Virus record (IMG/VR): IMGVR_UViG_3300043432_000200
Span: 1-38,016 of that record
Source: a virus
Lineage: Duplodnaviria; Caudoviricetes
Reading direction: 5' to 3' (one strand)
DNA length: 38,016 nucleotides
Every line of letters starts with the position of its first letter. The stretch's first letter is position 1. Both the position numbers and the translations under genes were made by a program. Below the pieces are notes generated by a model. The model had not been told where the DNA came from. It searched no databases and saw only the letters and a program-made list of their open reading frames with translations. Of the stretch, positions 481-38,016 are shown piece after piece.

Positions 481-511
481 GGTTCCTCCGGTGGGTTCGG
501 GCTTCCGCCTG

Positions 512-2742: not shown

Positions 2743-3614
2743 GCGGTCAGCTCCTTGATGGTGGGGGTGGCGCTCAGGGCGGCCAGGAAGGGGTCCACGG
2801 GCGCCGGCTCGGCGTAGGGGTCGGCGGCGCCGGTGGCCGCGGCGTAGTGCGAGACCACGGCCTGGCGCTCGGCCGCCTTGCGGGCCCGCTTGCGCTCTGA
2901 TGCCGACAAGAACTGTGGTGCTTGGCCATTCGGCGGCCTAACGGATCGGTTCAGCTCGACCTCCATGGCGCCCGTGCTGATCGTGCTGGCCGTCATGGCC
3001 GCCGCGCGGACCTGCTCGGGCAGCCAACCGACATCGAGCAGCTTCTCGAAGATCTTCACCCAGGCGATGAACGGGGAGGCCGGGCGCGGGTCGCGGTTGT
3101 CGTAGACGTGCTTGGCGAGGGCCTCGGCCTCCATGCGCAGCGGAGAGGGCAAGCCCTCGGCGCCCGACGTCGGCGAAGCCGGCGGCGCAGGGGGTTTTCT
3201 TTCCTTGCTCTCGTTCTCCTTGGTCTCTTTCTTAGTGGTCCGCGTAGGTGCGGACCTGCTGGTCCGCACCGGTGCGGACCACTGGTCCGCGTATGTGCGG
3301 ACCACCTCGTGCACCGTGTAGAGGTTGCGAGCCCCGCCGGCGGGGCGCTCCACGTCGATCCACTCGGCGCGCTCCAGCTCCTTCAGGGCCCGGTCCACGG
3401 TGTCCACGCTCTTGCCCATCAGCTCGGCGACGCGCTCGCGCCCGGGGAAGGCGGCTCCCTCGGTGTCGCTGTCGGGCCGGTTGTCCACATACCGGTGGAG
3501 GATGGCGTAGGCGGTCTTGGCGTTCGGCGAGATCGAGGGGTCGAAGAGCAAGGCCTCGGGCACCTTGGCGAACTGCCCCGCCGTGCGCCCTCGGCGCACT
3601 CGCTCGTCAGTCAT
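2739..3614 (-). CDS. phage replication initiator with N-terminal winged HTH
   Basis: FAKVP..LLFDPSISPNAK..Y...AFPGRERVAELMGKSVDTVDRALKELE...W...R...NLY; AAGGAG 8 nt before ATG 3614. Confidence 0.8.
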   Translation of the reverse strand: MTDERVRRGRTAGQFAKVPEALLFDPSISPNAKTAYAILHRYVDNRPDSDTEGAAFPGRERVAELMGKSVDTVDRALKELERAEWIDVERPAGGARNLYTVHEVVRTYADQWSAPVRTSRSAPTRTTKKETKENESKERKPPAPPASPTSGAEGLPSPLRMEAEALAKHVYDNRDPRPASPFIAWVKIFEKLLDVGWLPEQVRAAAMTASTISTGAMEVELNRSVRPPNGQAPQFLSASERKRARKAAERQAVVSHYAAATGAADPYAEPAPVDPFLAALSATPTIKELTA

Positions 3615-3955
3615 GTGTGGCACTCCTTGTTGGTCTGGAGTGCCCCGGGGTCGCCGGCTACCATGGCGCTCGACGTGGGAACGTCCGAGCGCTGGGAGCC
3701 ACGAACTCCGAGTGCACTCTGTTGGTGGGGCCCTCCGGGGCCCCGCTGCGCGTCGAAGCGTAGCTCCGGGTGCCAGGCGTGGTCAGAGGGCTCGGCCCGG
3801 TAGCCGGTGGCATCAGGGCGGCCCTGGAGCCGCTCCAGCTCCAGGTAGGTGCCCGAGCCTCGGGGCCCGCCGATCAGGCGGAGCAGCTCGTCGTAGGTCG
3901 GGCAGGGGCCGTTGCGCTCCACGGGGGAGCGCCGGCGGGGCGTGCGGTCGGTCAC
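3611..3955 (-). CDS. hypothetical protein (114 aa)
   Basis: GC3-rich 5' half, GGAG upstream of GTG, stop overlaps the initiator ATG. Confidence 0.5.
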   Translation of the reverse strand: MTDRTPRRRSPVERNGPCPTYDELLRLIGGPRGSGTYLELERLQGRPDATGYRAEPSDHAWHPELRFDAQRGPGGPHQQSALGVRGSQRSDVPTSSAMVAGDPGALQTNKECHT

Positions 3956-4032
3956 GGTGGGCTCCGATCTGGCCGACCGGTGCGCTACGCTCCAGCCGGA
4001 CCTTCCTGGTGGGGGGTTTGCTGGCTTCTGGT

Positions 4033-4057
4033 CACCGCCCCCCGAGTGGGGGCGGTG
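4033..4057 (-). terminator. GC-rich hairpin downstream of the methyltransferase
   Basis: CACCGCCCCC-5 nt-GGGGGCGGTG, 10-bp stem; no U-tract. Confidence 0.5.
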
Positions 4058-4076
4058 GTCGTTGTGGGGCCCGAGC

Positions 4077-4946: not shown

Positions 4947-5143
4947 GAGGCCCGCCGGGGCCAGGGCCGGCGCATGGCGTCGGACCGACGCTGGGCGCGG
5001 TTGTGGGCTGCGCGCTGCGCCCCCCTGCGACAGGGAGCGCAGCGGCAGCCCTCCAGCCACCCCTGCTCCGTTCCGTGCTCGGCCCGGAGGTTGGCCCTCT
5101 TGGTGCCGTACATGGGTCTGATGTCGGGGAGGTCCACGGTCAC
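4943..5143 (-). CDS. small actinophage HGT..G...GCRC..CR zinc-binding protein
   Basis: EHGTEQGWLEGCRCAPCR motif; coupled overlaps. Confidence 0.7.
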   Translation of the reverse strand: MTVDLPDIRPMYGTKRANLRAEHGTEQGWLEGCRCAPCRRGAQRAAHNRAQRRSDAMRRPWPRRAS

Positions 5144-5661
5144 GAGACGAGCTGGCGCCGGAAGCGGTAGATCGTCATGGGCGTGACGTCGAGGGCCTCG
5201 GCCATGATCCGGTCCGGCACCCCACTGGCGTCCAGCGCGGTGATGAGGTCCGCCATCTGCCCGAGCAGGTCGGCGGCCTTCGTGCTGAGGGCCGCCCGGT
5301 CGGCCTCGGCCTTGTCCATCTCGGCGCGGGCCTTCTCGATGAGGGCGTCCTCGCCCATCTTGGCGAAGGGCCGGCGGAGGCCCTTCTCCTCGGCGAGCCG
5401 GCGGGCCGCGAGGCCGCGGCCGCTCAGGCCGTAGACCTCCTTCAGCGGGCGGATGCGCTTGGCGATGGCCTCACGCGAGACGCCCAGGGCCCGGCCCGCC
5501 TCTTCGGTGGACACGCCCTTGAAGACCACCAGCTCCAGCAGGGCGGGGTAGGCGGTCGACGGGCTCCTCCAGAGCTGGAGGGCGGTGGAACGTTGCTTAT
5601 GCAGCTTCTTCAGCTTGCCCAGCTGGGAACGCTGCGTCTTGGTCAGGTCGGTGGTTTCCAT
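5140..5661 (-). CDS. transcriptional regulator with two HTH motifs (repressor candidate), leaderless
   Basis: GVSTEEAGRALGVSREAIAKR and GVPDRIMAEALDVTPMTIYR; first gene left of the divergence point. Confidence 0.75.
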   Translation of the reverse strand: METTDLTKTQRSQLGKLKKLHKQRSTALQLWRSPSTAYPALLELVVFKGVSTEEAGRALGVSREAIAKRIRPLKEVYGLSGRGLAARRLAEEKGLRRPFAKMGEDALIEKARAEMDKAEADRAALSTKAADLLGQMADLITALDASGVPDRIMAEALDVTPMTIYRFRRQLVS

Positions 5662-5668
5662 GGAGCCG

Positions 5669-5697
5669 ACTATATCGGACCGCTTGCAGTATGGCAA
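5669..5697 (-). promoter_or_regulatory. leftward promoter TTGCCA-N17-TATAGT (leaderless mRNA for the regulator)
   Basis: -35 at 5697-5692, -10 at 5674-5669, ATG 7 nt downstream, no SD. Confidence 0.75.
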
Positions 5698-5712
5698 CGG
5701 GTGGCGTAGACT
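5684..5712 (+). promoter_or_regulatory. rightward promoter TTGCAG-N17-TAGACT
   Basis: -35 at 5684-5689, -10 at 5707-5712; shares the TTGC-N6-GCAA palindrome with the leftward promoter. Confidence 0.75.
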
Positions 5713-5756
5713 CCTCCCCAGAGAAGCCCACCGACCGACCCACCAGGGGAGGCAAC

Positions 5757-6200
5757 ATGCCAGAGCCGTACACACGCTGTGCCCGATGCGGTACGACCTT
5801 CGCAGCCCACGGCGATCCTGACATCGGCCACTGCGAGGCCTTCACGCTGGCCGTCGATCCACCGCCCGACGGGGAGCTGGTCCACGTCCTCCGCGTGGAG
5901 GACGCCCAGCGGCTCCTCGCCGAGGCCGGCGCCGAGATGGGCGCCGTGGTCGAGAAGCTGGAGCGCCAGGTCCACCAGCTCTCCGCCGACCTGGAGTTGT
6001 GCATGGCCGCGCACGCCGAGGCCGAGGCCACGAACGAACTCTGGGGCGCGTTCGACTACGAGCTGCTCCTCTTGGCCGAGGCCGCCGAGATCGACACGGA
6101 GGGGCTCGCCCCCCTGGAGGTCGTCGACCGGTTGCGCTCGAAGGCGTACGACGAAGGATTCGAGGACGGGTGGAAGCCCGCGGAAGGAGGTGCCGCATGA
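5757..6200 (+). CDS. hypothetical protein with N-terminal CxxC...H...C and a coiled coil
   Basis: GGGGAGG RBS; CARCG motif; ATGA overlap with the next gene. Confidence 0.7.
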   Translation: MPEPYTRCARCGTTFAAHGDPDIGHCEAFTLAVDPPPDGELVHVLRVEDAQRLLAEAGAEMGAVVEKLERQVHQLSADLELCMAAHAEAEATNELWGAFDYELLLLAEAAEIDTEGLAPLEVVDRLRSKAYDEGFEDGWKPAEGGAA

Positions 6201-7826: not shown

Positions 7827-8479
7827 AGAGAGGGGGACCGCCGAAGCGCCGCAAGCCGCTCGCCCGTGGCGATTCGGAGCTGAAGCGGTCCCCCCTCGCT
7901 CGGGGCTCCTCAGAGCTGAAGCGCACGGAGCTGGCGCGCGACCCCGGCTATCGCATCCCGCAACGCTCGAAGAAGCGCGAGGGCGAGGTCGAGCGCCGGC
8001 GCGAGGTGGTGGCCGAGGTGATCCGCCTGGCCAACTACCGCTGCCAGTACCGGGCGGTCATCTGGGAGATCCCATGCGGCTACTTCCCCGACCGGCGGGC
8101 CCTGGAGGTGGACGAGCTGCGCGGGGGCTCGTGGCGCTCGACGGAGTACCTGGACCCCAAGCGGTGCCGCGCTACATGCCCCGCTCACCACGATTGGAAG
8201 ACGGACCACAAGCTCCTGGTGCTCGACCGCCTGGAGCGACTCGAAGGGAGTACCCCATGTCCAGGACCGGCGCCAAGCCCAAGCAGCGCCACGACGTCGA
8301 GCGGCTCGCGGCCACCTTCGGCTACGACGTCTCGACCACGAGCGGCGGGCACCTCCGGCTCCGCAAGCCGGGACGGCCAACCGTCCATCACAGCTCGACC
8401 GCGAGCGACCGCCGGGCCCTCCTCAACCTCAGGGCCCAGCTCCGCCGAGCCGACCAACAACGAACAAGGAGGTAGCTGA
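7823..8479 (+). CDS. HNH-like endonuclease with a long C-terminal extension overlapping the next gene
   Basis: Basic repeat N-terminus (LKRSPLAR), RCQ...C...EVDE...CPAHHDW; no in-frame stop until 8479. Confidence 0.65.
   Translation: MKRGGPPKRRKPLARGDSELKRSPLARGSSELKRTELARDPGYRIPQRSKKREGEVERRREVVAEVIRLANYRCQYRAVIWEIPCGYFPDRRALEVDELRGGSWRSTEYLDPKRCRATCPAHHDWKTDHKLLVLDRLERLEGSTPCPGPAPSPSSATTSSGSRPPSATTSRPRAAGTSGSASRDGQPSITARPRATAGPSSTSGPSSAEPTNNEQGGS
8257..8475 (+). CDS. HicA-like (dsRBD-fold) protein
   Basis: GYDVSTTSGGHLRLRKPG...SSTASDRRALLNLRAQLRR; GAAGGGAG RBS. Confidence 0.75.
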   Translation: MSRTGAKPKQRHDVERLAATFGYDVSTTSGGHLRLRKPGRPTVHHSSTASDRRALLNLRAQLRRADQQRTRR

Positions 8480-9805: not shown

Positions 9806-10598
9806 TTCAGTCCCGATGGCGGCCGATGGCGGGCAGGGCGATGACCGGGCCGAGGGCCAGGTGCAGGGCCACGAAGAGCCAGCCCAGGACCACGAGATCG
9901 ACGGAGCCCAGGGAGAGCTTCAGGAGAGCCCCCAGGAAGCAGAGGGCGGCGATGATGGCGAACATGCTGGGACCCTACCCGTGCGCCCCCCGTCACTGAC
10001 CGATCTGGGCGAGGCGTTCGAGGAGCTGGCCGAATGGATGGTCGGCCAGCTCGATGCCGACGACGAGCCCAGCGAAGGCCTGGTGGACCAGACGGTGGCC
10101 AATGCCATCCTCCGCCGCGTGGGGATGCTGGAGCGCCGCCTGGAGCTGCGCGAGGAGGTCTACGAGGCCGAGCGCCAGCGCCTGGAGCAGTACATCGAGC
10201 ACCAGCGCGCCACGCTCGGCGAGGCCATCGAGCGTGACCGCCACTGGCTGGCCGGGTGGCACAACGCGCAGCTGGGCCCGCACGGCCGCGGCCCCAAGAC
10301 CATCGAGCTACCGGCCGGGCGCCTGAAGGCCGCCAACCAGCAACCCGAGTACGTGATCGAGGACGTGGGCGCCTTCCTGGCCTGGGCCGAGGAGCACGCC
10401 CCCGAACTGGTGCGCCGGCCCGAGCCGAAGTTCCCCCCGCCGGCGCCGGACAAGGTGGCCATCAAGAAGCGGGTGGCCCCGGCGCTGAAGGAGCGCAAGG
10501 ACTGGCGCCCGGGGGACGTGGTGCGGTTCGAGGACGTGCCGGGGGTGGCGGTCACGATGCGCGGGCCGAAGTTCGAGGCCACGCCCGATAGGGACTAA
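9798..10598 (+). CDS. Mu Gam-like host-nuclease inhibitor (DNA-end binding); start uncertain
   Basis: Coiled coil followed by KTIELPAGRL...FLAWA...ELVR...PDKVAIKK...VPGV. Confidence 0.7.
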   Translation: MRDSVPMAADGGQGDDRAEGQVQGHEEPAQDHEIDGAQGELQESPQEAEGGDDGEHAGTLPVRPPSLTDLGEAFEELAEWMVGQLDADDEPSEGLVDQTVANAILRRVGMLERRLELREEVYEAERQRLEQYIEHQRATLGEAIERDRHWLAGWHNAQLGPHGRGPKTIELPAGRLKAANQQPEYVIEDVGAFLAWAEEHAPELVRRPEPKFPPPAPDKVAIKKRVAPALKERKDWRPGDVVRFEDVPGVAVTMRGPKFEATPDRD

Positions 10599-10858: not shown

Positions 10859-10893
10859 GCCCACCAGAAGCCCCCACCACCGAAAGGACCGCC

Positions 10894-11180: not shown

Positions 11181-12728
11181 ATGCCAGAGCCTTCACCCAC
11201 CCCTTACTCGTCCTTTACCGAGCCGCGCTATGACCCCGAGGAGGTGCGCGCCTGGTTCAAGGACACGGCCGAGCCCTGCCCCGAGATCCTCGCCCCCCTC
11301 CACCTGCTCCTGCCGATCCTGAAGCGCCGCATCGGGCCCGTGGGCAAGTCGGGCCAGATGAAGGCCCAGACGGACAAGCAGACGGGGGAGAAGAAGGGCC
11401 CCGAGTACCCCTTCCGCAAGATCGAGGACATCCTGAACGAGGGCCACGGGCCCCTCTGCGATCTGGGCGTCTCCTGGCGCAAGGTGGCGATCCTCCGCCA
11501 CGAGCTGAAGGCCAACGGCAAGGCCGAGACCTGCGTCATGGACGTGGAGTACGAGCTGGTCGGCCCGCTCGGTGACACGGTGCGCACGGTCGCCACCGGC
11601 GAGGCCACCGACTTCGGCTCGGACAAGGCCACGAACAAGGCCGACACGTGCGCCCGGAAGAACATGCTCGTGGACCTGCTCCAGCTGGCCACCGAGGACC
11701 CCGACTCGGAGCGGCCCGACCGCGTGGACGAGTCGCCCCACGTCCAGCGCGTCAGCGGCTCCCAGTGGGCGGAGGTCCAGGCCGCCATCAAGGCGCTGCC
11801 CGAGGAGACCCGCGCCGAGGTGAAGGAGTGGGCCGACGACAAGGGCATGACCGTGACCGGGGCGGGCCTCACGGTGGGCGACTACCGGAAGCTGAAGCCC
11901 TATCTGGCGGCCGTCAAGCGGCGCCTGGAGCAGGGCGGGCCGGACACGGTGAAGGCCGCCATGGAGAAGCTGGAGGAGTCGGTGGCCGCGGCGAAGGACG
12001 CCCGCAGTCGCCATCCGCAGCCGGCCGCCGGTGCGCCGGCCGCTCCCCGAGGCGAGGCCGCGGCCGATACCGCCGGCGACATCGACAAGCCGCCCGTCGA
12101 GCTGGTGACCGCCGAGCACGTCGCCACCCTGAAGACGGAGACGGCCAAGCTGAACAACGACCAGCGCGCCGGGCTCCTCTCGTGGGCCGAGGCCCAGGGC
12201 ATCAACGTGGAGGTGGCCGCCCTCCCTGAGTTGACGGTCGACCAGTTCACGGCCCTGATGCGAGCCATCCGCAACACGCTCCGTTCGGGCGAGATGGGCA
12301 CCGCCAAGAAGGCGGCCAGCCGGCCCGCCAAGAAGGCCGCCGGCCGGGCAACGGGCTCGACGAGCAAGAGCGCGAGCAGGCGGCCCCGCTCGACTCCCGA
12401 GCCGGACCCTGCGCCGGCGCCGCCGGCCGAGGACGAAGCGGCCGCGGCCGAGCGCAACCGCCTCCGGGCGGAGCTGATCGGCCGGGCGGAGCTGCTTCCG
12501 CCGGCGATCCAGGCGCAGTTCCTGACAGACCTGGCCGCGGCGAAGGGGCCCTCGGGCGTCCCCCTGGCCGATGCCATCGAGGCCTGCCCCCCGCCGTGGG
12601 ACCGCTGGCTGTCCACCGTCATCGAGCGCCTGGAGGCCATCGTGGAGGAGGCCGAGCGGGCCGAGGTCGAGGCCCTGGCCGATGAGGCCGACGCGGCGGA
12701 AGAGGCCGAGCAGGCGGCCACCACGTAG
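11181..12728 (+). CDS. ERF-family ssDNA-annealing recombinase with a long C-terminal extension
   Basis: IGPVGK...YPFRKIEDI...GEATDFGSDKATNKADTCARK..L..LLQLATED; AAGGAG RBS. Confidence 0.8.
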   Translation: MPEPSPTPYSSFTEPRYDPEEVRAWFKDTAEPCPEILAPLHLLLPILKRRIGPVGKSGQMKAQTDKQTGEKKGPEYPFRKIEDILNEGHGPLCDLGVSWRKVAILRHELKANGKAETCVMDVEYELVGPLGDTVRTVATGEATDFGSDKATNKADTCARKNMLVDLLQLATEDPDSERPDRVDESPHVQRVSGSQWAEVQAAIKALPEETRAEVKEWADDKGMTVTGAGLTVGDYRKLKPYLAAVKRRLEQGGPDTVKAAMEKLEESVAAAKDARSRHPQPAAGAPAAPRGEAAADTAGDIDKPPVELVTAEHVATLKTETAKLNNDQRAGLLSWAEAQGINVEVAALPELTVDQFTALMRAIRNTLRSGEMGTAKKAASRPAKKAAGRATGSTSKSASRRPRSTPEPDPAPAPPAEDEAAAAERNRLRAELIGRAELLPPAIQAQFLTDLAAAKGPSGVPLADAIEACPPPWDRWLSTVIERLEAIVEEAERAEVEALADEADAAEEAEQAATT

Positions 12729-12740
12729 ACGCTGGCGGAG

Positions 12741-12889
12741 CTAAGCGGGGCGCCGGGGGTAGTTCTTTCCCCTCGGCGTCGCGTTAGGGGCCCACCTGCG
12801 CACCGGCGGTCAGACGGCGCCGCGGTGTGTCAACGGGGGTGACCTCCCCCTCGAAGGGGGCCCGCTCCGTCAACCAGTCAGGCCGGTGC
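12741..12889 (+). ncRNA. candidate structured RNA in the convergence gap
   Basis: Several nested stems whose G-U wobbles favour the + strand; no credible ORF. Confidence 0.35.
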
Positions 12890-12914
12890 AACCGGCGGCC
12901 ACGGCAAGGGCCGC

Positions 12915-12943
12915 GCCGGCGGGGGACCGCAACCCCCGCCGGC
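12915..12943. terminator. hairpin between convergent operons
   Basis: GCCGGCGGGGG-ACCGCAA-CCCCCGCCGGC, perfect 11-bp stem 8 nt past the holin stop. Confidence 0.65.
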
Positions 12944-12951
12944 CCTGGCGC

Positions 12952-13200
12952 TCAGCTGGCTTTGGCCAGGCTCGCCGGCGAGATGGTGCCGTCGATGGCC
13001 TTGGCGATCCACGCCTTCAGGGCGGCGAGGCCCGCGACGTAGGCGGCCATGATGGCGCCGGTGACGGTATCCAGCGTGACCGTCTCGGCGCCGGTGATCT
13101 CCTTCGTGAAGGCGGCCAGGGCGGCAGCGATCACGAGCTGGACCACGGTGGAGACGATGCGCTCGATGGCGTCACGTGCCCACGATCCTGCGTTATCCAT
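12952..13200 (-). CDS. holin (r1t-like)
   Basis: W..DAIERIVST..Q, two TM helices, SPASL C-terminus; AAGGAG RBS. Confidence 0.7.
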   Translation of the reverse strand: MDNAGSWARDAIERIVSTVVQLVIAAALAAFTKEITGAETVTLDTVTGAIMAAYVAGLAALKAWIAKAIDGTISPASLAKAS

Positions 13201-28673: not shown

Positions 28674-29126
28674 CTAGGCGGCCACCAGCGCGCCGGTGCC
28701 GTCGTACGGGTACCAGGTGCAATACCACGTGATGGCGCCGTCGGTGCCGGTCGAGACGTGCTCGATCTGGCCGATCGGGGCCACCACGGCGGCCCCGATG
28801 TCGATGGATGCGACGCCCCCGCGGATGATGCCGCTGGCGCCGGCGGGCGTGAGCATGTCGCCCACGGGCGTGTCGACGGTCCCCAGATCGGTGGCCGCGC
28901 AGATGTCCGTGGTGGTGCCCGTCGTCGGGTTGCTCTGAAGCTTGTAGGAGTTGGCGACGGTGATGGCCGTCGTCACCACCCCGATGAGGCTGGTCACGAC
29001 GACCAGCCCCCCGGAGATGGTGAAGAGCGCCACCGTGGAAGCCGCCAACGTCCCCGTTGCCTTGGACACGACAGGTGACCCGAGGGTCAGCATCCGTATC
29101 TGGTTGTTGGGGATGAGGGTGGACAT
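28674..29126 (-). CDS. putative capsid decoration protein, paralog B
   Basis: Highly similar to 29130-29591; located downstream of the capsid gene. Confidence 0.65.
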   Translation of the reverse strand: MSTLIPNNQIRMLTLGSPVVSKATGTLAASTVALFTISGGLVVVTSLIGVVTTAITVANSYKLQSNPTTGTTTDICAATDLGTVDTPVGDMLTPAGASGIIRGGVASIDIGAAVVAPIGQIEHVSTGTDGAITWYCTWYPYDGTGALVAA

Positions 29127-29129
29127 GGT

Positions 29130-29591
29130 TCAGGCCGCCACCAGCGTTGCGCCGTCATCGAGCGGGCACCACATGACGTTCCACGTGATGGCCCCGTCGG
29201 TGCCGGCGCTGACGTGCTCGATCTGGCCGATGGTCAGGGCCGTGTTGAGCATGCACGTCCCGTAGCCGATGCTGATGAGCTTGGGCGGGGCCGTGGTGGT
29301 GGCCAGCCCGAACTGGAGGACGTCGCCCGCGAGCGTGTCCGTGGTCCCGATGTCGGTCGCCGCGCAGAGGTCCTGCGTGTCGCCCGTCGTCGGGTTCAGC
29401 TGAAGCTTGTAGCTGTTCGCCACCGTGATCGACGTCGTCACGACGCCCCACATGGCGGTCACGAGCACGCGGCCGCCGGCGATGGTGAACAGGGGGACGG
29501 TGGTGGCAGCCAGCGTGCCCGTGGCCTTGCTGACCGGGCCGGAGCCCAGCAGAAGCGACCGGAGCTGGTTGCCCTGGATGATCGTGGACAT
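29130..29591 (-). CDS. putative capsid decoration protein, paralog A
   Basis: GGAGG RBS; VSKATGTLAA...ITVANSYKLQ.NPTTG.T.D.CAATD.GT...IGQIEHVS.GTDGAITW shared with paralog B. Confidence 0.65.
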   Translation of the reverse strand: MSTIIQGNQLRSLLLGSGPVSKATGTLAATTVPLFTIAGGRVLVTAMWGVVTTSITVANSYKLQLNPTTGDTQDLCAATDIGTTDTLAGDVLQFGLATTTAPPKLISIGYGTCMLNTALTIGQIEHVSAGTDGAITWNVMWCPLDDGATLVAA

Positions 29592-33464: not shown

Positions 33465-35867
33465 CTACTCCCAGTACGGGACGAACGTCCCGCGGCAACG
33501 TGCGCGCCCCTCGCACTTCCGATAGCCCCCGAACGGGTACTCGGCCTGGACATCGGCCAACGTGTCGAACCGTCGGCCGTCGATCTCGGCGCACGGCCCG
33601 CAGGTGTTCTTGTCGCGCACCTCATCCGCCAGGAAGTAGCCGGCCGGCGCGCCGTCGGCCTCCGCCTGCTCCAGGGTCGCCGCGCGGCCCTCGTTCTCGG
33701 CCGCCCAGATGGCGGCGCTCAGCTCCGACCCCAGGGTGGCCGTGGTCAGGCCCTCCAGGTGCGAGCGCACACGCTGGGCGACCTCTCGGCCCGTGGCGCC
33801 CGGTGACCAGACGCGCAGGGCCTCCCGCGCGGCCGAGGAGGTGAAGGCGTTCGTCAGGTTCTTGGCCGTCAGCATGGCCGCGGCCCTCAGGTCCTCGGCG
33901 AGACCCGCCAGCACCCGGGCCGGGCGGGGCAGGGCGCCGTAGAGCACGAGCGCGCCCCGGTCGGCGGGGGGCTCGATGGGCACGGCGGGGGCGATGCTCT
34001 GGCCCTGCTCGGCGGCCAGCTCTGCCATGCGCTGGGCGCCGGCGGCCGCCTGCTCGAACATGGCGTCGGCGAGCATCGCGGCCCCGACGTCGCTGGAGGC
34101 CGTCAGCTCCGCCAGGGCCGCGGGCTGGGCGGCGTCGACCACGCTCTCGATCTGACCGACAAGCTCGTCGATCTGGGCGCCCGTGACCTCGCGGGACCAG
34201 CGGGCCACGAGGGCGTCGACGCGGTCCTCCCAGTCCTCGCGGGTCGGCTCGGCGTCGGCCTCCACCTCGGCGCGCAGGACGTGGCGGATGATGGCCCCGA
34301 GGTCGGCGCCGGCGGTCAGCTCTCCGGCGATGTGGACGTGGCCGAGGGCGCCGGGGGGCGCCGGCTCTGCGGGGGCACGTCGGGAGGGCACGGTGCCGGG
34401 CGGTGCGAGCGCCGGGCCCTCGGCCGGTGCCGGCTCTGCGCCGGGTGGCAGGACGGGCGCGGCGGGCTCGGGCGGAGGGGTCTGGTTGGACGAGACGGCG
34501 CCGGGCGCGCCGGGCGGGGGCGGGGCGTTGGGGTCGATGTCGGCGCCCGCTTCCACGAGCATGGCCCGAGCCTCTTCCCACGTGAGAACGGTTCCCACTC
34601 CGAGGTAGACCTTCTGGACGGTCTCGACCAGGGCCCGCATGTCGGCGCCAGGATCGGCGGCCGGAGCCTCGGGGGTGCTCGTGGTGACGGAGCCCAGGTG
34701 CGTGATCTCGGGCAGGCCCACCGCTTCGAGCACGGCGGCCGGCTCGAAGCCGGCGTCGACCAGGGTCTTGGCGGCGTTGGCCCGCGCCGTCAGCTCGGCG
34801 TTGTCCGCCTCCCTGTTGGCGGGCACGGGGTCCACGTAGTCGAACTCCAGGCCGGCGGCGCCGGGCCCGTAGAGCGGCAGGAACTCCTCGTTCAGGGCGC
34901 CCTTGATGCGCTCCAGGCGGGGCACGAGCAGGCTCTCGGCGAACCAGGCGCGGGAGGCCTCGGCCGTCGCCCGGTTGACGTCATCCACATCCCCCACGGC
35001 GAACTTGGGGATACCGAAGGCCTCGCGGATGACATCCCTGGACACGCTACGCAGCTCTGCGAACTGCATATCCCGCTGGCTGAAGCCCCGCTCGACCCAC
35101 TTCATGCCGGACTCGATGAGCGCCACGCGGTGGGCGGCCGCCACGCCGCGGTGCTGCTCGGCCCACCGTTCGCGTAGCTCGTCGAACTCCGCATCGCTCA
35201 GGCGCTTGTCAACCTCGATGATGCCGCCCGGCTCTGAGGAGTTAAGGAAGAAGTTCCTATTCCATTCACTCGTGTACCTTGTCGCATCAAGGTCCACGAG
35301 CACCGCTTGCACAGGCCCCATCCCCCGGTAGGGGTCCAGGGGGTTCGGCATCCTCAGCTGGATGACGTCGCGGGTCTCCAGGGGGACCAGGCCGCCGTCG
35401 GGCGTCGTGTAGACGTACCCGCGGATGAAGTCCACGGGGTCCGGCACCGGCGTGATGCGGTCCGGGCGAACGGGCCAGATCTCCAGGGGGAGCGGACTGG
35501 CCGGGTTGCGGGCGATCACCCACCAGCCCTCGCCCGTCAGGTCGACGTGTTGCTGGACGGTCTCGGTGAACTCCTGGCGCGGCATGAAGGGGTTTGGCTT
35601 GTTCCACACGTCGAGCGCCGCGTGCCGTGCCACCTCTGCCCGATCCTCGGGCTTGCCGCTGGCCGCCGTGCGGTAGAGCTTCCACTCCACGCGGCTCGTG
35701 TTGTTGGCCAGCGCGGTGATGATGGCGAACAGGGTCCCCACCGAGCCCATGGCCTTCATCTGCTGTTCGGCGTCGTTGCGCTGGGTGAACGGCAAGGCGA
35801 TCGAGCTGGCGCGCCCGACGTACGGGACCGGTGCCCGGTTGAACAGAGAGCCCAGGGGGCTCCTCAC
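33465..35867 (-). CDS. HK97-family portal protein fused to a Mu gpF-like minor head domain
   Basis: NKPNPFM, LTGEGWW, PVRPDRI, YRGMGPV, FFLNSSEPGGII, DMQFAE, AFGIP; C-terminal DKNTCGPC..IDG...CRG. Confidence 0.92.
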   Translation of the reverse strand: MRSPLGSLFNRAPVPYVGRASSIALPFTQRNDAEQQMKAMGSVGTLFAIITALANNTSRVEWKLYRTAASGKPEDRAEVARHAALDVWNKPNPFMPRQEFTETVQQHVDLTGEGWWVIARNPASPLPLEIWPVRPDRITPVPDPVDFIRGYVYTTPDGGLVPLETRDVIQLRMPNPLDPYRGMGPVQAVLVDLDATRYTSEWNRNFFLNSSEPGGIIEVDKRLSDAEFDELRERWAEQHRGVAAAHRVALIESGMKWVERGFSQRDMQFAELRSVSRDVIREAFGIPKFAVGDVDDVNRATAEASRAWFAESLLVPRLERIKGALNEEFLPLYGPGAAGLEFDYVDPVPANREADNAELTARANAAKTLVDAGFEPAAVLEAVGLPEITHLGSVTTSTPEAPAADPGADMRALVETVQKVYLGVGTVLTWEEARAMLVEAGADIDPNAPPPPGAPGAVSSNQTPPPEPAAPVLPPGAEPAPAEGPALAPPGTVPSRRAPAEPAPPGALGHVHIAGELTAGADLGAIIRHVLRAEVEADAEPTREDWEDRVDALVARWSREVTGAQIDELVGQIESVVDAAQPAALAELTASSDVGAAMLADAMFEQAAAGAQRMAELAAEQGQSIAPAVPIEPPADRGALVLYGALPRPARVLAGLAEDLRAAAMLTAKNLTNAFTSSAAREALRVWSPGATGREVAQRVRSHLEGLTTATLGSELSAAIWAAENEGRAATLEQAEADGAPAGYFLADEVRDKNTCGPCAEIDGRRFDTLADVQAEYPFGGYRKCEGRARCRGTFVPYWE

Positions 35868-36210: not shown

Positions 36211-36531
36211 CCGGTAGACGTGCGGCTCGGCGTGCTTCGAGACCACCAGGGCGTTGTTCAGGGTCTCCTCGCCCGCCCAGATCACGCCCAGCCACCGGGC
36301 GTAGACGTCCTCCCGCTGGCTCTCGACCTCGATCTCGACGTGCTCGGCCAGCCACGCCTTCGTGAAGGCCGTGGCCTCAGACCCACCCGGGGCCGTGGCC
36401 TCGGGGCAGTTGATCCCCACGAGACGGAACCGCTGGCGCGCCCAGACCCTGAAGCCCAGGTCGACGTCCAGGTCGACCGTGTCACCGTCGACCACACGCA
36501 CGAGCGTGGCCGGATAGCGCCGGGGGTTCAC
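36208..36531 (-). CDS. thermonuclease (SNase-like) protein
   Basis: RVVDGDTVDLDVDLGF...RFRLVGINCPE...DVYARWLG...LNNALV. Confidence 0.88.
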   Translation of the reverse strand: MNPRRYPATLVRVVDGDTVDLDVDLGFRVWARQRFRLVGINCPEATAPGGSEATAFTKAWLAEHVEIEVESQREDVYARWLGVIWAGEETLNNALVVSKHAEPHVYR

Positions 36532-36773
36532 TCGCCGGCCGCCGGATCGACCCCACCCTGGTCGAGCGCCACGGCCTTCTTGGCTCGGGCGAGCGAGTCC
36601 TCCAGGTGCGTCACGGCCAGGCTCTTGTCGCGGCCCGGGGGGAGGATGTGAGCCAGGGCCCGGCCGTAGGCGATGGCCGCCTCGGTGAGGTCATCGAGGG
36701 CGGAGTGGATGCCGGGCGTCCGCGGGGGCTGGTTGGTCAGTCGGTGGGCGATCTCGGCCTCGGTGATGTCCAT
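36528..36773 (-). CDS. Acb2/Tad1-like helical hairpin protein (possible anti-defence signal sponge), leaderless
   Basis: LPPGRDKSLAVTHLEDSLARAKKAVA resembles the P.sRE.SLA.T.LEE family motif. Confidence 0.6.
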   Translation of the reverse strand: MDITEAEIAHRLTNQPPRTPGIHSALDDLTEAAIAYGRALAHILPPGRDKSLAVTHLEDSLARAKKAVALDQGGVDPAAGE

Positions 36774-36791
36774 GCGCCCACCGTAGTGCGG

Positions 36792-37172
36792 TCAGCCCCG
36801 CCCGTAGCAGGGGTCATAGACGGCCCGAGGGGGGACCAGCTCGGCGCCGGCCGGATAGAGGTGGAGGCCCTCGCCCACGAACGCCCACCCGTTGTTCGAG
36901 TGCACGAGCATGCGGCCATCGGGGCACACCTTGGCGGTGGCCCCGTTGATCTCGTCCAGACCCGTCAGCGGGTTGTGGCACGGGCGCTGAAGGTCGTCCA
37001 CGCCGTTCACGGGCTGGCCCTCGCGGTAGGTCTCGGCGCACGAGCGGAGGGCCACGGTCGCCGGCGCTGCGGTCATCGGCGCCGGCGACGGCGGGGGGTC
37101 ATCGGCCGCAGTGGCGCACCCCGCGCCGAGGAGGAGGGCGGAGAGGGCGAGCGCACGCCAGACGTTGGTCAT
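36792..37172 (-). CDS. lipoprotein, leaderless
   Basis: Signal peptide with lipobox LLLGAGC; four further Cys; TAGGGT 6 nt before ATG. Confidence 0.75.
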   Translation of the reverse strand: MTNVWRALALSALLLGAGCATAADDPPPSPAPMTAAPATVALRSCAETYREGQPVNGVDDLQRPCHNPLTGLDEINGATAKVCPDGRMLVHSNNGWAFVGEGLHLYPAGAELVPPRAVYDPCYGRG

Positions 37173-37189
37173 GCGGCCACCCTACCGAT

Positions 37190-37360
37190 GGCCCCGGAGA
37201 GCCTCGCCCAGGGGCCCCTCCAGGGCGCCGGGGTCGGGGCCGTGGGGGAAGGTGGGGCCATGCCGTCGTGCGGTCGACCTGGGCGAGGCCTAGCCGGGCG
37301 CCAGGGGAGGCAACCGACCAGCGGGCGAGCCCCGGGGAGAGGGGAGGGGTTCCCGCGTCC
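37190..37360 (-). ncRNA. candidate sRNA with three C-rich loops (6C-RNA-like)
   Basis: Putative promoter CTGACG-N18-TACGGT (37396-37367); hairpin loops UCCCCUCUCCCC, CCUCCCC and CCACCUUCCCCCAC; 12-bp stem 37201-37212/37278-37289. Confidence 0.45.
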
Positions 37361-37392
37361 GGCCCCACCGTACCCCTTGCGCCGGCTCGGCG

Positions 37393-37650
37393 TCAGCGCA
37401 CGTAGCCGCCGCGGGCCGCCCTCGTGCGCAGGGTTCTGGCCAGCTCGCGCCGCACGCTGGCCGCCTGCTCCTCGGTGAGGGCGTAGTCGCCGGCGCGGCC
37501 GCCGATGAGGCCGTCGTCCAGAGACTCGGCGAGGTCCTCCAAGCACTGGAGCTTGAACGCCCGGCGGGCCTCGATGGTCGAGCGGTACTTGGTGCCGGGC
37601 CGGCGGATGCCATCCCAGCGGCCTCGAAGCATGGGGGGAAGGTTGCTCAT
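37393..37650 (-). CDS. hypothetical protein (85 aa)
   Basis: GGAGG RBS, ATGA coupling. Confidence 0.7.
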   Translation of the reverse strand: MSNLPPMLRGRWDGIRRPGTKYRSTIEARRAFKLQCLEDLAESLDDGLIGGRAGDYALTEEQAASVRRELARTLRTRAARGGYVR

Positions 37651-37817
37651 GCGGGGGTGACCTCCATGTCGGGGTAGCGGTCGAGGCGCTTGCCGCCCTC
37701 GAAGATGTAGGTGAAGAGGCCGTCACCGACGTTGGCGCGGCGCACGGAGTGGAAGGTGAGAGCGCCGTGGTAGGGGTCCTTGATGGTGGCGCCGGGGGTG
37801 AGGTCTCCGTAGGTCAT
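37647..37817 (-). CDS. small beta-rich hypothetical protein (56 aa), leaderless
   Basis: MTYGDLTPGATI...; ATG 6 nt after TATTCT. Confidence 0.7.
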   Translation of the reverse strand: MTYGDLTPGATIKDPYHGALTFHSVRRANVGDGLFTYIFEGGKRLDRYPDMEVTPA

Positions 37818-37823
37818 GTAGAG

Positions 37824-37863
37824 AGAATAACATGGGGCCTGCTCGATTGCAAGCCCCATGTTA
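37824..37863 (-). promoter_or_regulatory. promoter TTGCAA-N17-TATTCT inside a 15-bp (one mismatch) inverted repeat
   Basis: TAACATGGGGCTTGC-AATCGA-GCAGGCCCCATGTTA on the minus strand; -35 at 37852-37847, -10 at 37829-37824. Confidence 0.75.
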
Positions 37864-38016
37864 GAACTACCGGCCGTAGGGGTAGGCCTCGGGCTCGCTC
37901 GGCCGGGCCTTCGTCCACGAGCCGCCAGCGAACACCCGGTGGAAGTCCTCGGCCGTGGCCAGCCGGCTGCCCCACCATCATGGCGCTTGCGTCTCCTTGG
38001 TGGGGGGCTTCCTTCT

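Follow-up and report, generated by a model that had tools for sequence, protein, structure and literature searches.

The DNA analysed here (the window) was a whole linear virus record of 38,016 nt, with 70% G+C and an estimated completeness of about 78%. Genes for a portal, a protease, a capsid, a tape measure protein, an Lsr2-like protein, a replication initiator, a ParB-like protein, Erf and a Gam-like protein were annotated in it, and relatives of the capsid were found chiefly in genomes of Streptomyces and of other actinobacteria, and also in phage Dagobah. By this set of virion and replication genes, together with the capsid relatives, the record is assigned to a tailed phage infecting actinobacteria. 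Among the 62 ORFs scanned, neither a terminase nor an integrase was detected, and the single terminase match returned by a search with the 85-aa gene described below was spurious. The head-tail module was the sole part that the phage had in common with 23 prophage loci and with Dagobah. Two tandem paralogs of about 150 aa (28674-29591, minus strand) showed 75–78% DNA identity over parts of their length, and most relatives gave one match to them.

Upstream of the portal gene lies a minus-strand cassette with genes for proteins of 56 and 85 aa, a gap, and then genes for a 126-aa protein, an 81-aa Acb2/Tad1 protein, an SNase-type nuclease and a 92-aa protein. The gap (37173-37392, 220 nt) separates the 85-aa and 126-aa genes, both on the minus strand. 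The following genes of the cassette are referred to below:

37393-37650, minus strand: 85-aa gene directly upstream of the gap, with its ribosome-binding site (RBS) at 37652-37665.
36792-37172, minus strand: 126-aa gene downstream of the gap, leaderless (TAGGGT-N6-ATG), with its own promoter extending to 37184.
36528-36773, minus strand: leaderless gene of an 81-aa Acb2/Tad1 hairpin-domain protein (PF24729, 30.2 bits, cut-off 27), adjoining the SNase-family nuclease gene.

Four of the cassette genes carried a TAnnnT box 6 nt before the ATG, so that the neighbours of the gap, which an earlier note on this DNA had taken to be leaderless, do have that appearance. The Acb2/Tad1 protein is likely an anti-defence nucleotide sponge, and the product of the 126-aa gene would be secreted or lipoprotein-like, as judged by eye from its N-terminus. 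Searches with the 126-aa gene recovered only itself among 56 candidates, with no homolog. For the 85-aa gene, four short orphan homologs could be aligned, their genomic context being absent, searches for further loci carrying it came back empty, and the comparison with 401 genomes gave two weak matches, both within long frames. Contigs of a public run (X1), which may be the source sample, spanned 37013-37277 and 37248-37810 with zero differences, and a contig of a second public run (X2) spanned 37334-37512. At the end of the record (37976-38016), the contigs of X1 and X2 diverged from it at 37976 and ran into a plausible gene start; the final 41 nt may be a chimeric end.

The absence of a convincing ORF in the gap, claimed in the earlier note, was borne out with a codon model. 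All five ORFs touching the gap scored negative, the 30-aa ORF 37169-37261 at -10.9 bits and the other four at -26 to -86 bits, against +15 to +49 bits for the five flanking genes (plus the nuclease) scored alongside. By codon score the gap is non-coding, and translation of the 30-aa ORF, which that note had named as a competing explanation of the region, is argued against. Nine runs of at least four C were counted in the gap, a number reached in 39 of 3000 shuffles, and they form the densest 200-nt cluster of such runs in the contig. Another gap, at 3615-4076, has 10 such runs in 462 nt; it is poorly coding, holds several hairpins, has four TANNNT boxes ahead of the replication gene, and is possibly a further ncRNA or regulatory leader. 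As for relatives of the gap at the DNA level, an exact 20-nt pattern gave zero hits in viral contigs, blastn against phages and plasmids returned short chance pieces only, and the matches listed for 27 fetched loci, like those to four whole records, were at chance level; no sequence similarity to cultured phages was found. The features located in the gap were:

37367-37396, minus strand: putative promoter, with CTGACG at 37396-37391, an 18-nt spacer and TACGGT at 37372-37367; start predicted at about 37360.
37321-37356, minus strand: hairpin 1, with the 12-nt pyrimidine loop UCCCCUCUCCCC (37345-37334).
37290-37321, minus strand: hairpin 2, of 12 bp including three G-U pairs, with the loop UCCCCU (37308-37303).
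37301-37321, minus strand: antisense stretch, with 14 nt perfect (37301-37314), a 3-nt mismatch opposite AUG and 4 nt perfect (37318-37321).
37200-37290, minus strand: hairpin 3, long and imperfect, with the perfect 12-bp inverted repeat 37278-37289/37201-37212.
37244-37376, minus strand: alternative long helix of 37376-37361 with 37259-37244 (14 of 16 pairs), in a read-through transcript only.
37230-37257, plus (template) strand: quadruplex-type motif with four runs of at least four G, the only such motif in the window.

The promoter elements CTGACG-N18-TACGGT were present on the minus strand as claimed beforehand, with the -35-like CTGACG sharing bases with the stop codon of the 85-aa gene; a sigma-70 consensus scan called no promoter in the gap. 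The -10 box (TACGGTGGG / TACGGTGG) was common to the gap promoter and to the leaderless promoter at 36785. The motif TASGGTGG occurred at three sites in the window, all within the cassette, and the other two lay 6 nt before leaderless ATGs. Three sites are not an unusual count (19 of 100 shuffles), and it is the placement alone that counts. TANNNT is rare in this genome, with 39 boxes seen versus 126 expected. The -10 box is the best sign of a promoter in the gap, and the start site near 37360 is the one that it would imply. The 126-aa gene has a promoter to itself, and so the gap does not have to serve as its leader.

When the predicted RNA starting at about 37360 was folded, three consecutive hairpins were obtained (166 nt, z -1.6, not significant), and the fold of a 241-nt region around the gap gave a z of +0.2. 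Hairpin 1 alone reached only z +0.45, the register of its CCCC/GGGG stem being ambiguous. Hairpin 2 (-19.9 kcal/mol, z -2.16, 2 of 200 shuffles) was kept in all folds except that of 241 nt. Its loop had been drawn earlier as CCUCCCC on a weak stem, a drawing that has to be replaced by UCCCCU on a 12-bp stem. Together, hairpins 1 and 2 make up about 67 nt with C-rich loops, and the pair folded no better than shuffles (z -0.13). The most significant structure of the gap was hairpin 3 (z -3.3, a value of -3.3 or lower being reached by 5 of 200 tiles); the window contains three 12-bp repeats of the kind that closes it, and within it the C-rich stretch 37242-37255, the third of the gap, is partly open. 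The third loop proposed in the earlier note was recovered as written only if 37225-37280 was folded alone, and folding of the whole RNA leaves open only about ACCUUCCC. No U tail and no run of three U follow hairpin 3, and an intrinsic (U-tailed) terminator was rejected, there being no U tract after the GC-rich hairpin. The top fold among the 200 tiles (z -9.9) was found elsewhere, at 3231-3325 within the replication initiator gene, where repeated palindromic units likely represent an origin.

The 5′ arm and the loop of hairpin 2 contain the complement of the RBS of a gene starting at 5757, which opens the rightward operon (ParB-like, Gam-like and Erf genes). The features of this target region were:

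5684-5763, plus strand: predicted target, with a TTGCAG-17-TAGACT promoter inside a TTGC-N6-GCAA palindrome, a leader, the RBS (5743-5756) and the gene start.
527, 5684, 10603, 10830 and 37839: TTGC-N6-GCAA palindrome at five putative promoter regions, where it overlaps the -35 boxes.

Gene 5757 (5757-6200, 147 aa) gave no Pfam, PHROG or PDB match and only Atlas matches below 0.9, and its structure model, mostly helices, had a pTM of 0.30. Searches gave three homologs and one locus, and none was found in metagenome contigs, cultured phages or the 401 genomes. The palindrome is common to the divergent promoter pair at 5662-5756 and was found at four further putative promoters outside the 5684 region, two of them with one mismatch; it is likely the operator of the leaderless HTH gene 5140-5661. 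A leader motif, GAAGCCC-N(0-12)-CCACC, was observed at 490-505 (minus), 5723-5744 (plus), 10867-10881 (plus) and 37999-38011 (minus), four copies versus 0.23 expected. Three of them stand directly behind operator-linked promoters and ahead of an RBS, and the motif is possibly an antitermination or protein-binding tag. Genes 5757 and 11181, both on the plus strand, have identical first 11 nt (ATGCCAGAGCC, Met-Pro-Glu-Pro).

A single syntenic phage record (G001), the only one brought back by an Erf alignment, carries the HTH gene, the palindrome, the divergent promoters, the target gene, Erf and the virion genes in order. Two copies of the palindrome and the promoter of the target region were kept in this relative, and its target RBS keeps GGAGG only. 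This record, 55% complete, breaks off within the portal gene, about 2 kb short of the position of the gap, and lacks the cassette. No second copy (at least 12 nt) of its target RBS was found in its 26 kb, from which the cassette is missing. If a matching hairpin arm and loop existed there, they would read approximately GGGCACCUCCAGG.

The 14-mer of the RBS before ATG 5757 was present, as had been reported, in exactly two copies (5743-5756 and 37301-37314), and the antisense match extended to 18 of 21 nt. The caution given with that claim, namely that a 14-mer could by itself be due to chance and that its position was what deserved notice, proved well placed. The bare repeat is ordinary: the window contained 109 exact repeats of at least 14 nt, 108 of 183 tiles of 207 nt contained one, and the longest repeat of the gap was an unrelated 15-mer. 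Landing on an RBS is rarer. It was seen in 8 of 1500 shuffles for this strand of the gap, and at least one gap-to-RBS hit over all ten gaps and both strands was obtained in 48 of 1500 shuffled genomes (about 3%). Against 58 start regions, the next best target of the complement after the 14 nt of gene 5757 had 9 nt; a complement of at least 14 nt to a start region was found in 20 of 3000 shuffles and in 7 of 366 real tiles, among them the present one. GGGGAGG occurs in only 2 of 59 start regions of the phage.

With real foreign sequences as the background, the gaps of this phage gave one hit on 580 foreign RBSs, and 38,241 nt of foreign gaps gave none on the RBSs of this phage. Among 27 related loci, 24 cross hits were counted, about 0.1 per genome, with automatic gene calls and with related RBSs included. 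The match between gap and RBS is uncommon but not decisive, with a chance rate from 3% (shuffles) to about 10% (real foreign sequences), to be read with a 14-nt threshold fixed after the match was seen and a window selected out of a very large scan. An exposed seed complementary to a distant RBS was found, the loop that holds the seed being more than 90% unpaired in the predicted fold.

Binding energies were predicted with a script combining RNAduplex and accessibility rather than with IntaRNA. The duplex of the RNA with the 5757 region was calculated at about -40 kcal/mol, and the net value after opening costs was merely -11 to -13 kcal/mol (rank 1 or 2 of 58), because most of the complement sits in a stem. 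A best target at least as good as 5757 was obtained with 67 of 73 shuffled RNAs, the energy for gene 5757 specifically was reached by 3 of 73, and the opposite strand of the gap had a target at -15.5 kcal/mol. The net binding energy in this model is unremarkable, and thermodynamics adds little. For hairpin 1, 9 nt can pair with codons 2–5 of gene 7823 at -16.7 kcal/mol, the best of the 58, an energy equalled in 6 of 73 shuffles.

The gap was also compared with known RNAs. Rfam gave no match over the whole window at the gathering threshold, and at E≤10 in 36700-38016 two chance matches near the gap (E 5.8 and 7.2) and no 6C RNA. An RNA anti-CRISPR was rejected, the only CRISPR-DR20 match being at chance level and outside the gap. 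The earlier note had called the RNA 6C-like and proposed an Infernal search against the 6C family; that search was run without a match, and the description holds for the mode of action, not for family membership. No match to the 6C covariance model (RF01066, gathering 47 bits) and no six-C run were found in the gap, where the longest C run is 5, most are of 4, and loop 1 holds nine C interrupted by U. In the available text of PMC5014011, 6C is defined by at least six conserved cytosines in each of two loops. Two weak matches (15.5 and 13.5 bits) were obtained elsewhere in the contig with a model that can miss divergent members, since its cut-off was reached in none of 14 control genomes, C. 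glutamicum included.

According to the portions available of PMC6486639 and PMC10470900, actinobacterial C-rich loops repress by pairing with RBSs without chaperones. The candidate RNA of the gap resembles 6C/B11 (RF01066) in its actinobacterial setting and in C-rich loops predicted to pair with G-rich RBSs chaperone-free (PMC6486639, PMC10470900 and PMC5014011, as far as available). It differs in its three domains spread over about 165 nt, where 6C has a core of two loops and about 80 nt, and in being phage-borne with a long complementarity to one target, where 6C pairs over short stretches with many. In its logic it is nearer to the C4 antisense RNA of phages P1 and P7, described in the accessible part of PMC5320573 as a phage RNA with trans-acting loops that partly occludes an RBS and controls phage genes. 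No a′/b′ sites and no tRNA-like processing site were seen in the gap, however, and its target is no known antirepressor operon. Membership in the C4 family was rejected, with no Rfam C4 match and three consecutive hairpins instead of a three-stem cloverleaf.

Streptomyces scr5583 and scr1434 also have stable stems and C-rich loops, as stated in the available part of PMC3765725. RNAs with anti-SD loops of the RNAIII/RsaE type likewise have C-rich loops on stable stems. Both groups, unlike the gap RNA, are host-encoded and conserved across species, and no sequence match to the gap was found with them. Abundant RNAs from non-coding gaps have been described in the actinophages WC1, D29, L5 and Kampy (PMC10986025); no function is known for them, and the available text of that report names no RBS target. 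An actinophage sRNA with a mapped RBS target was found neither in the phage and actinophage sRNA literature, subscription papers lying outside this search, nor in the accessible part of the supplement to a 2025 review (PMC12197685).

Taken together, the gap is a real and unusual non-coding feature of this single genome, with a plausible anti-RBS role. The reading that we favour, tentatively and with a probability of somewhat under 0.4, is that the gap yields a phage small RNA directed against the RBS of gene 5757. The putative promoter of the gap would give rise to a structured RNA of about 165 nt. Its hairpin 2 would nucleate, through the open loop UCCCCU, on AGGGGA in the Shine-Dalgarno region of that gene; the 5′ arm with its G-U pairs would unzip, and the duplex would grow across the spacer and beyond the start codon (14 + 4 bp), lowering the translation of the gene. 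Gene 5757 opens an operator-controlled rightward operon, and therefore such an RNA would brake an early module. Gene 7823 may be a further site, reached through hairpin 1. The sequence itself, the complementarity, the lack of coding signal and the placement of the motifs are observed, the folds and energies are predictions, and the transcription of the RNA, its ends and timing, its pairing and the repression are inferred. The trans-acting mechanism claimed in the earlier note is partly supported: a C-rich structured RNA with a loop-centred complement agrees with the anatomy and with a modest statistic. If real, the RNA would supply an actinophage sRNA with an RBS target and would imply that phages use the chaperone-free C-loop pairing of their hosts.

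Among the alternatives, the one that survives best, although still rather doubtful, is that the gap is the structured 3′ end of a two-gene early message from a promoter before 37817, acting as a U-less terminator or as a Rho-loading or nuclease-blocking tail that insulates the next gene, the 14-mer being a coincidence. The two genes need an end, and the strength of hairpin 3 and the 3–10% chance rate of the match would both fit this explanation. So would the excess of C over G on the minus strand (79 to 52). In the available text of PMC6742748, only 194 of 1,640 3′ ends of S. lividans had a U-rich motif, and alternative terminators in the form of C-rich stem-loops have been suggested (PMC6486639, available portion). 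A transcript end leaves unexplained, however, the neighbour-like -10 box that opens the gap, the loop-centred seed and the second 14-mer described below.

It is unlikely that the gap encodes a real C-rich sRNA directed mainly at host mRNAs that have G-rich leaders, as a 6C-like takeover or a decoy, with the match to 5757 being incidental. Three C-rich single-stranded stretches, the leaderless neighbours and the Acb2/Tad1 anti-defence gene in the same cassette agree with a host-directed RNA, and a complementarity of only 6 nt marks the targets of B11 in the accessible part of PMC10470900. Against it, the runs are of four to five C interrupted by U, not poly-C.

Very little weight can be given to a cis switch, in which the long helix 37376-37361/37259-37244 would compete with hairpin 3 in a read-through transcript and set the read-through into the 126-aa gene: this helix does pair at 14 of 16 positions and crosses the 12-bp helix of hairpin 3, but its fold has a z of -0.5, the 126-aa gene has its own promoter and no Rfam match was obtained. 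Equally improbable is a translated 30-aa ORF (37169-37261) coupled to the 126-aa gene, or a gap that is a decaying gene remnant. The stop of this ORF overlaps the next ATG (ATGA) and its GC3 is 0.86, but its codon score is negative, no Shine-Dalgarno motif was seen by eye before its ATG, and it covers less than half of the gap, excluding hairpins 1 and 2. The least probable explanation is a DNA element, a template-strand G-quadruplex pausing the polymerase or tuning the promoter at 37184. The gap has the only four-tier G motif of the window, with the second-highest G4Hunter-like score, but a coding stretch at 34512 outscores it, and G runs arise automatically opposite C-rich loops.

A second, mirror-image case was spotted by browsing the list of repeats:

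12834-12850, plus strand: further hairpin with a complement to an RBS, GGGGG-UGACCU-CCCCC, within the structured tail that ends the rightward operon.

Here, 14 nt (12834-12847) are complementary to 37652-37665, the RBS of the 85-aa gene directly upstream of the gap, and they are laid out as in hairpin 2, with the 5′ arm, the 6-nt loop and two bases of the 3′ arm. The predicted energy on this RBS was -12.5 kcal/mol, rank 1 of 58. The hairpin belongs to a strongly folded multi-hairpin tail (12729-12951, plus strand) between convergent operons; folding of the tail gave z -3.7, a 144-nt fold z -4.2, and a 48-nt fold another structure. This gap has no TANNNT box and therefore would be a 3′ tail. 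Rfam gave no match at 12600-13100. Two gap-to-RBS hits in one genome were obtained in 1 of 1500 shuffles, and the five self hits inside the 27 related loci were all terminal-repeat duplicates of Dagobah, which were dropped, with none otherwise. The RBS at 37652-37665 is partly self-complementary, stems of five G and five C are common in this phage, and the long gap at 12834 is absent from the syntenic relative, which has a short hairpin only.

A reciprocal RNA circuit, in which the gap RNA would block the first gene of the rightward operon and the operon tail would block the 85-aa gene, is improbable. If true, two operator-controlled modules 25–31 kb apart would shut each other off at the RBS, and the circuit would serve an actinophage as an RNA toggle, for timing or for immunity. 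Cross-repression of this kind, by RNA only, would be unusual, and the case for it at present comes from a single genome.

Two further observations concern the region of the rightward operon. A 72-aa protein (8257-8475, plus strand) gave a weak HicA-like match (E 0.002, below the cut-off), and a similar gene was found at the matching place in the syntenic relative. Antiparallel to the operon, at 9807-9965 on the minus strand, a 52-aa ORF with a good codon score was observed behind a leaderless TAGGGT promoter.
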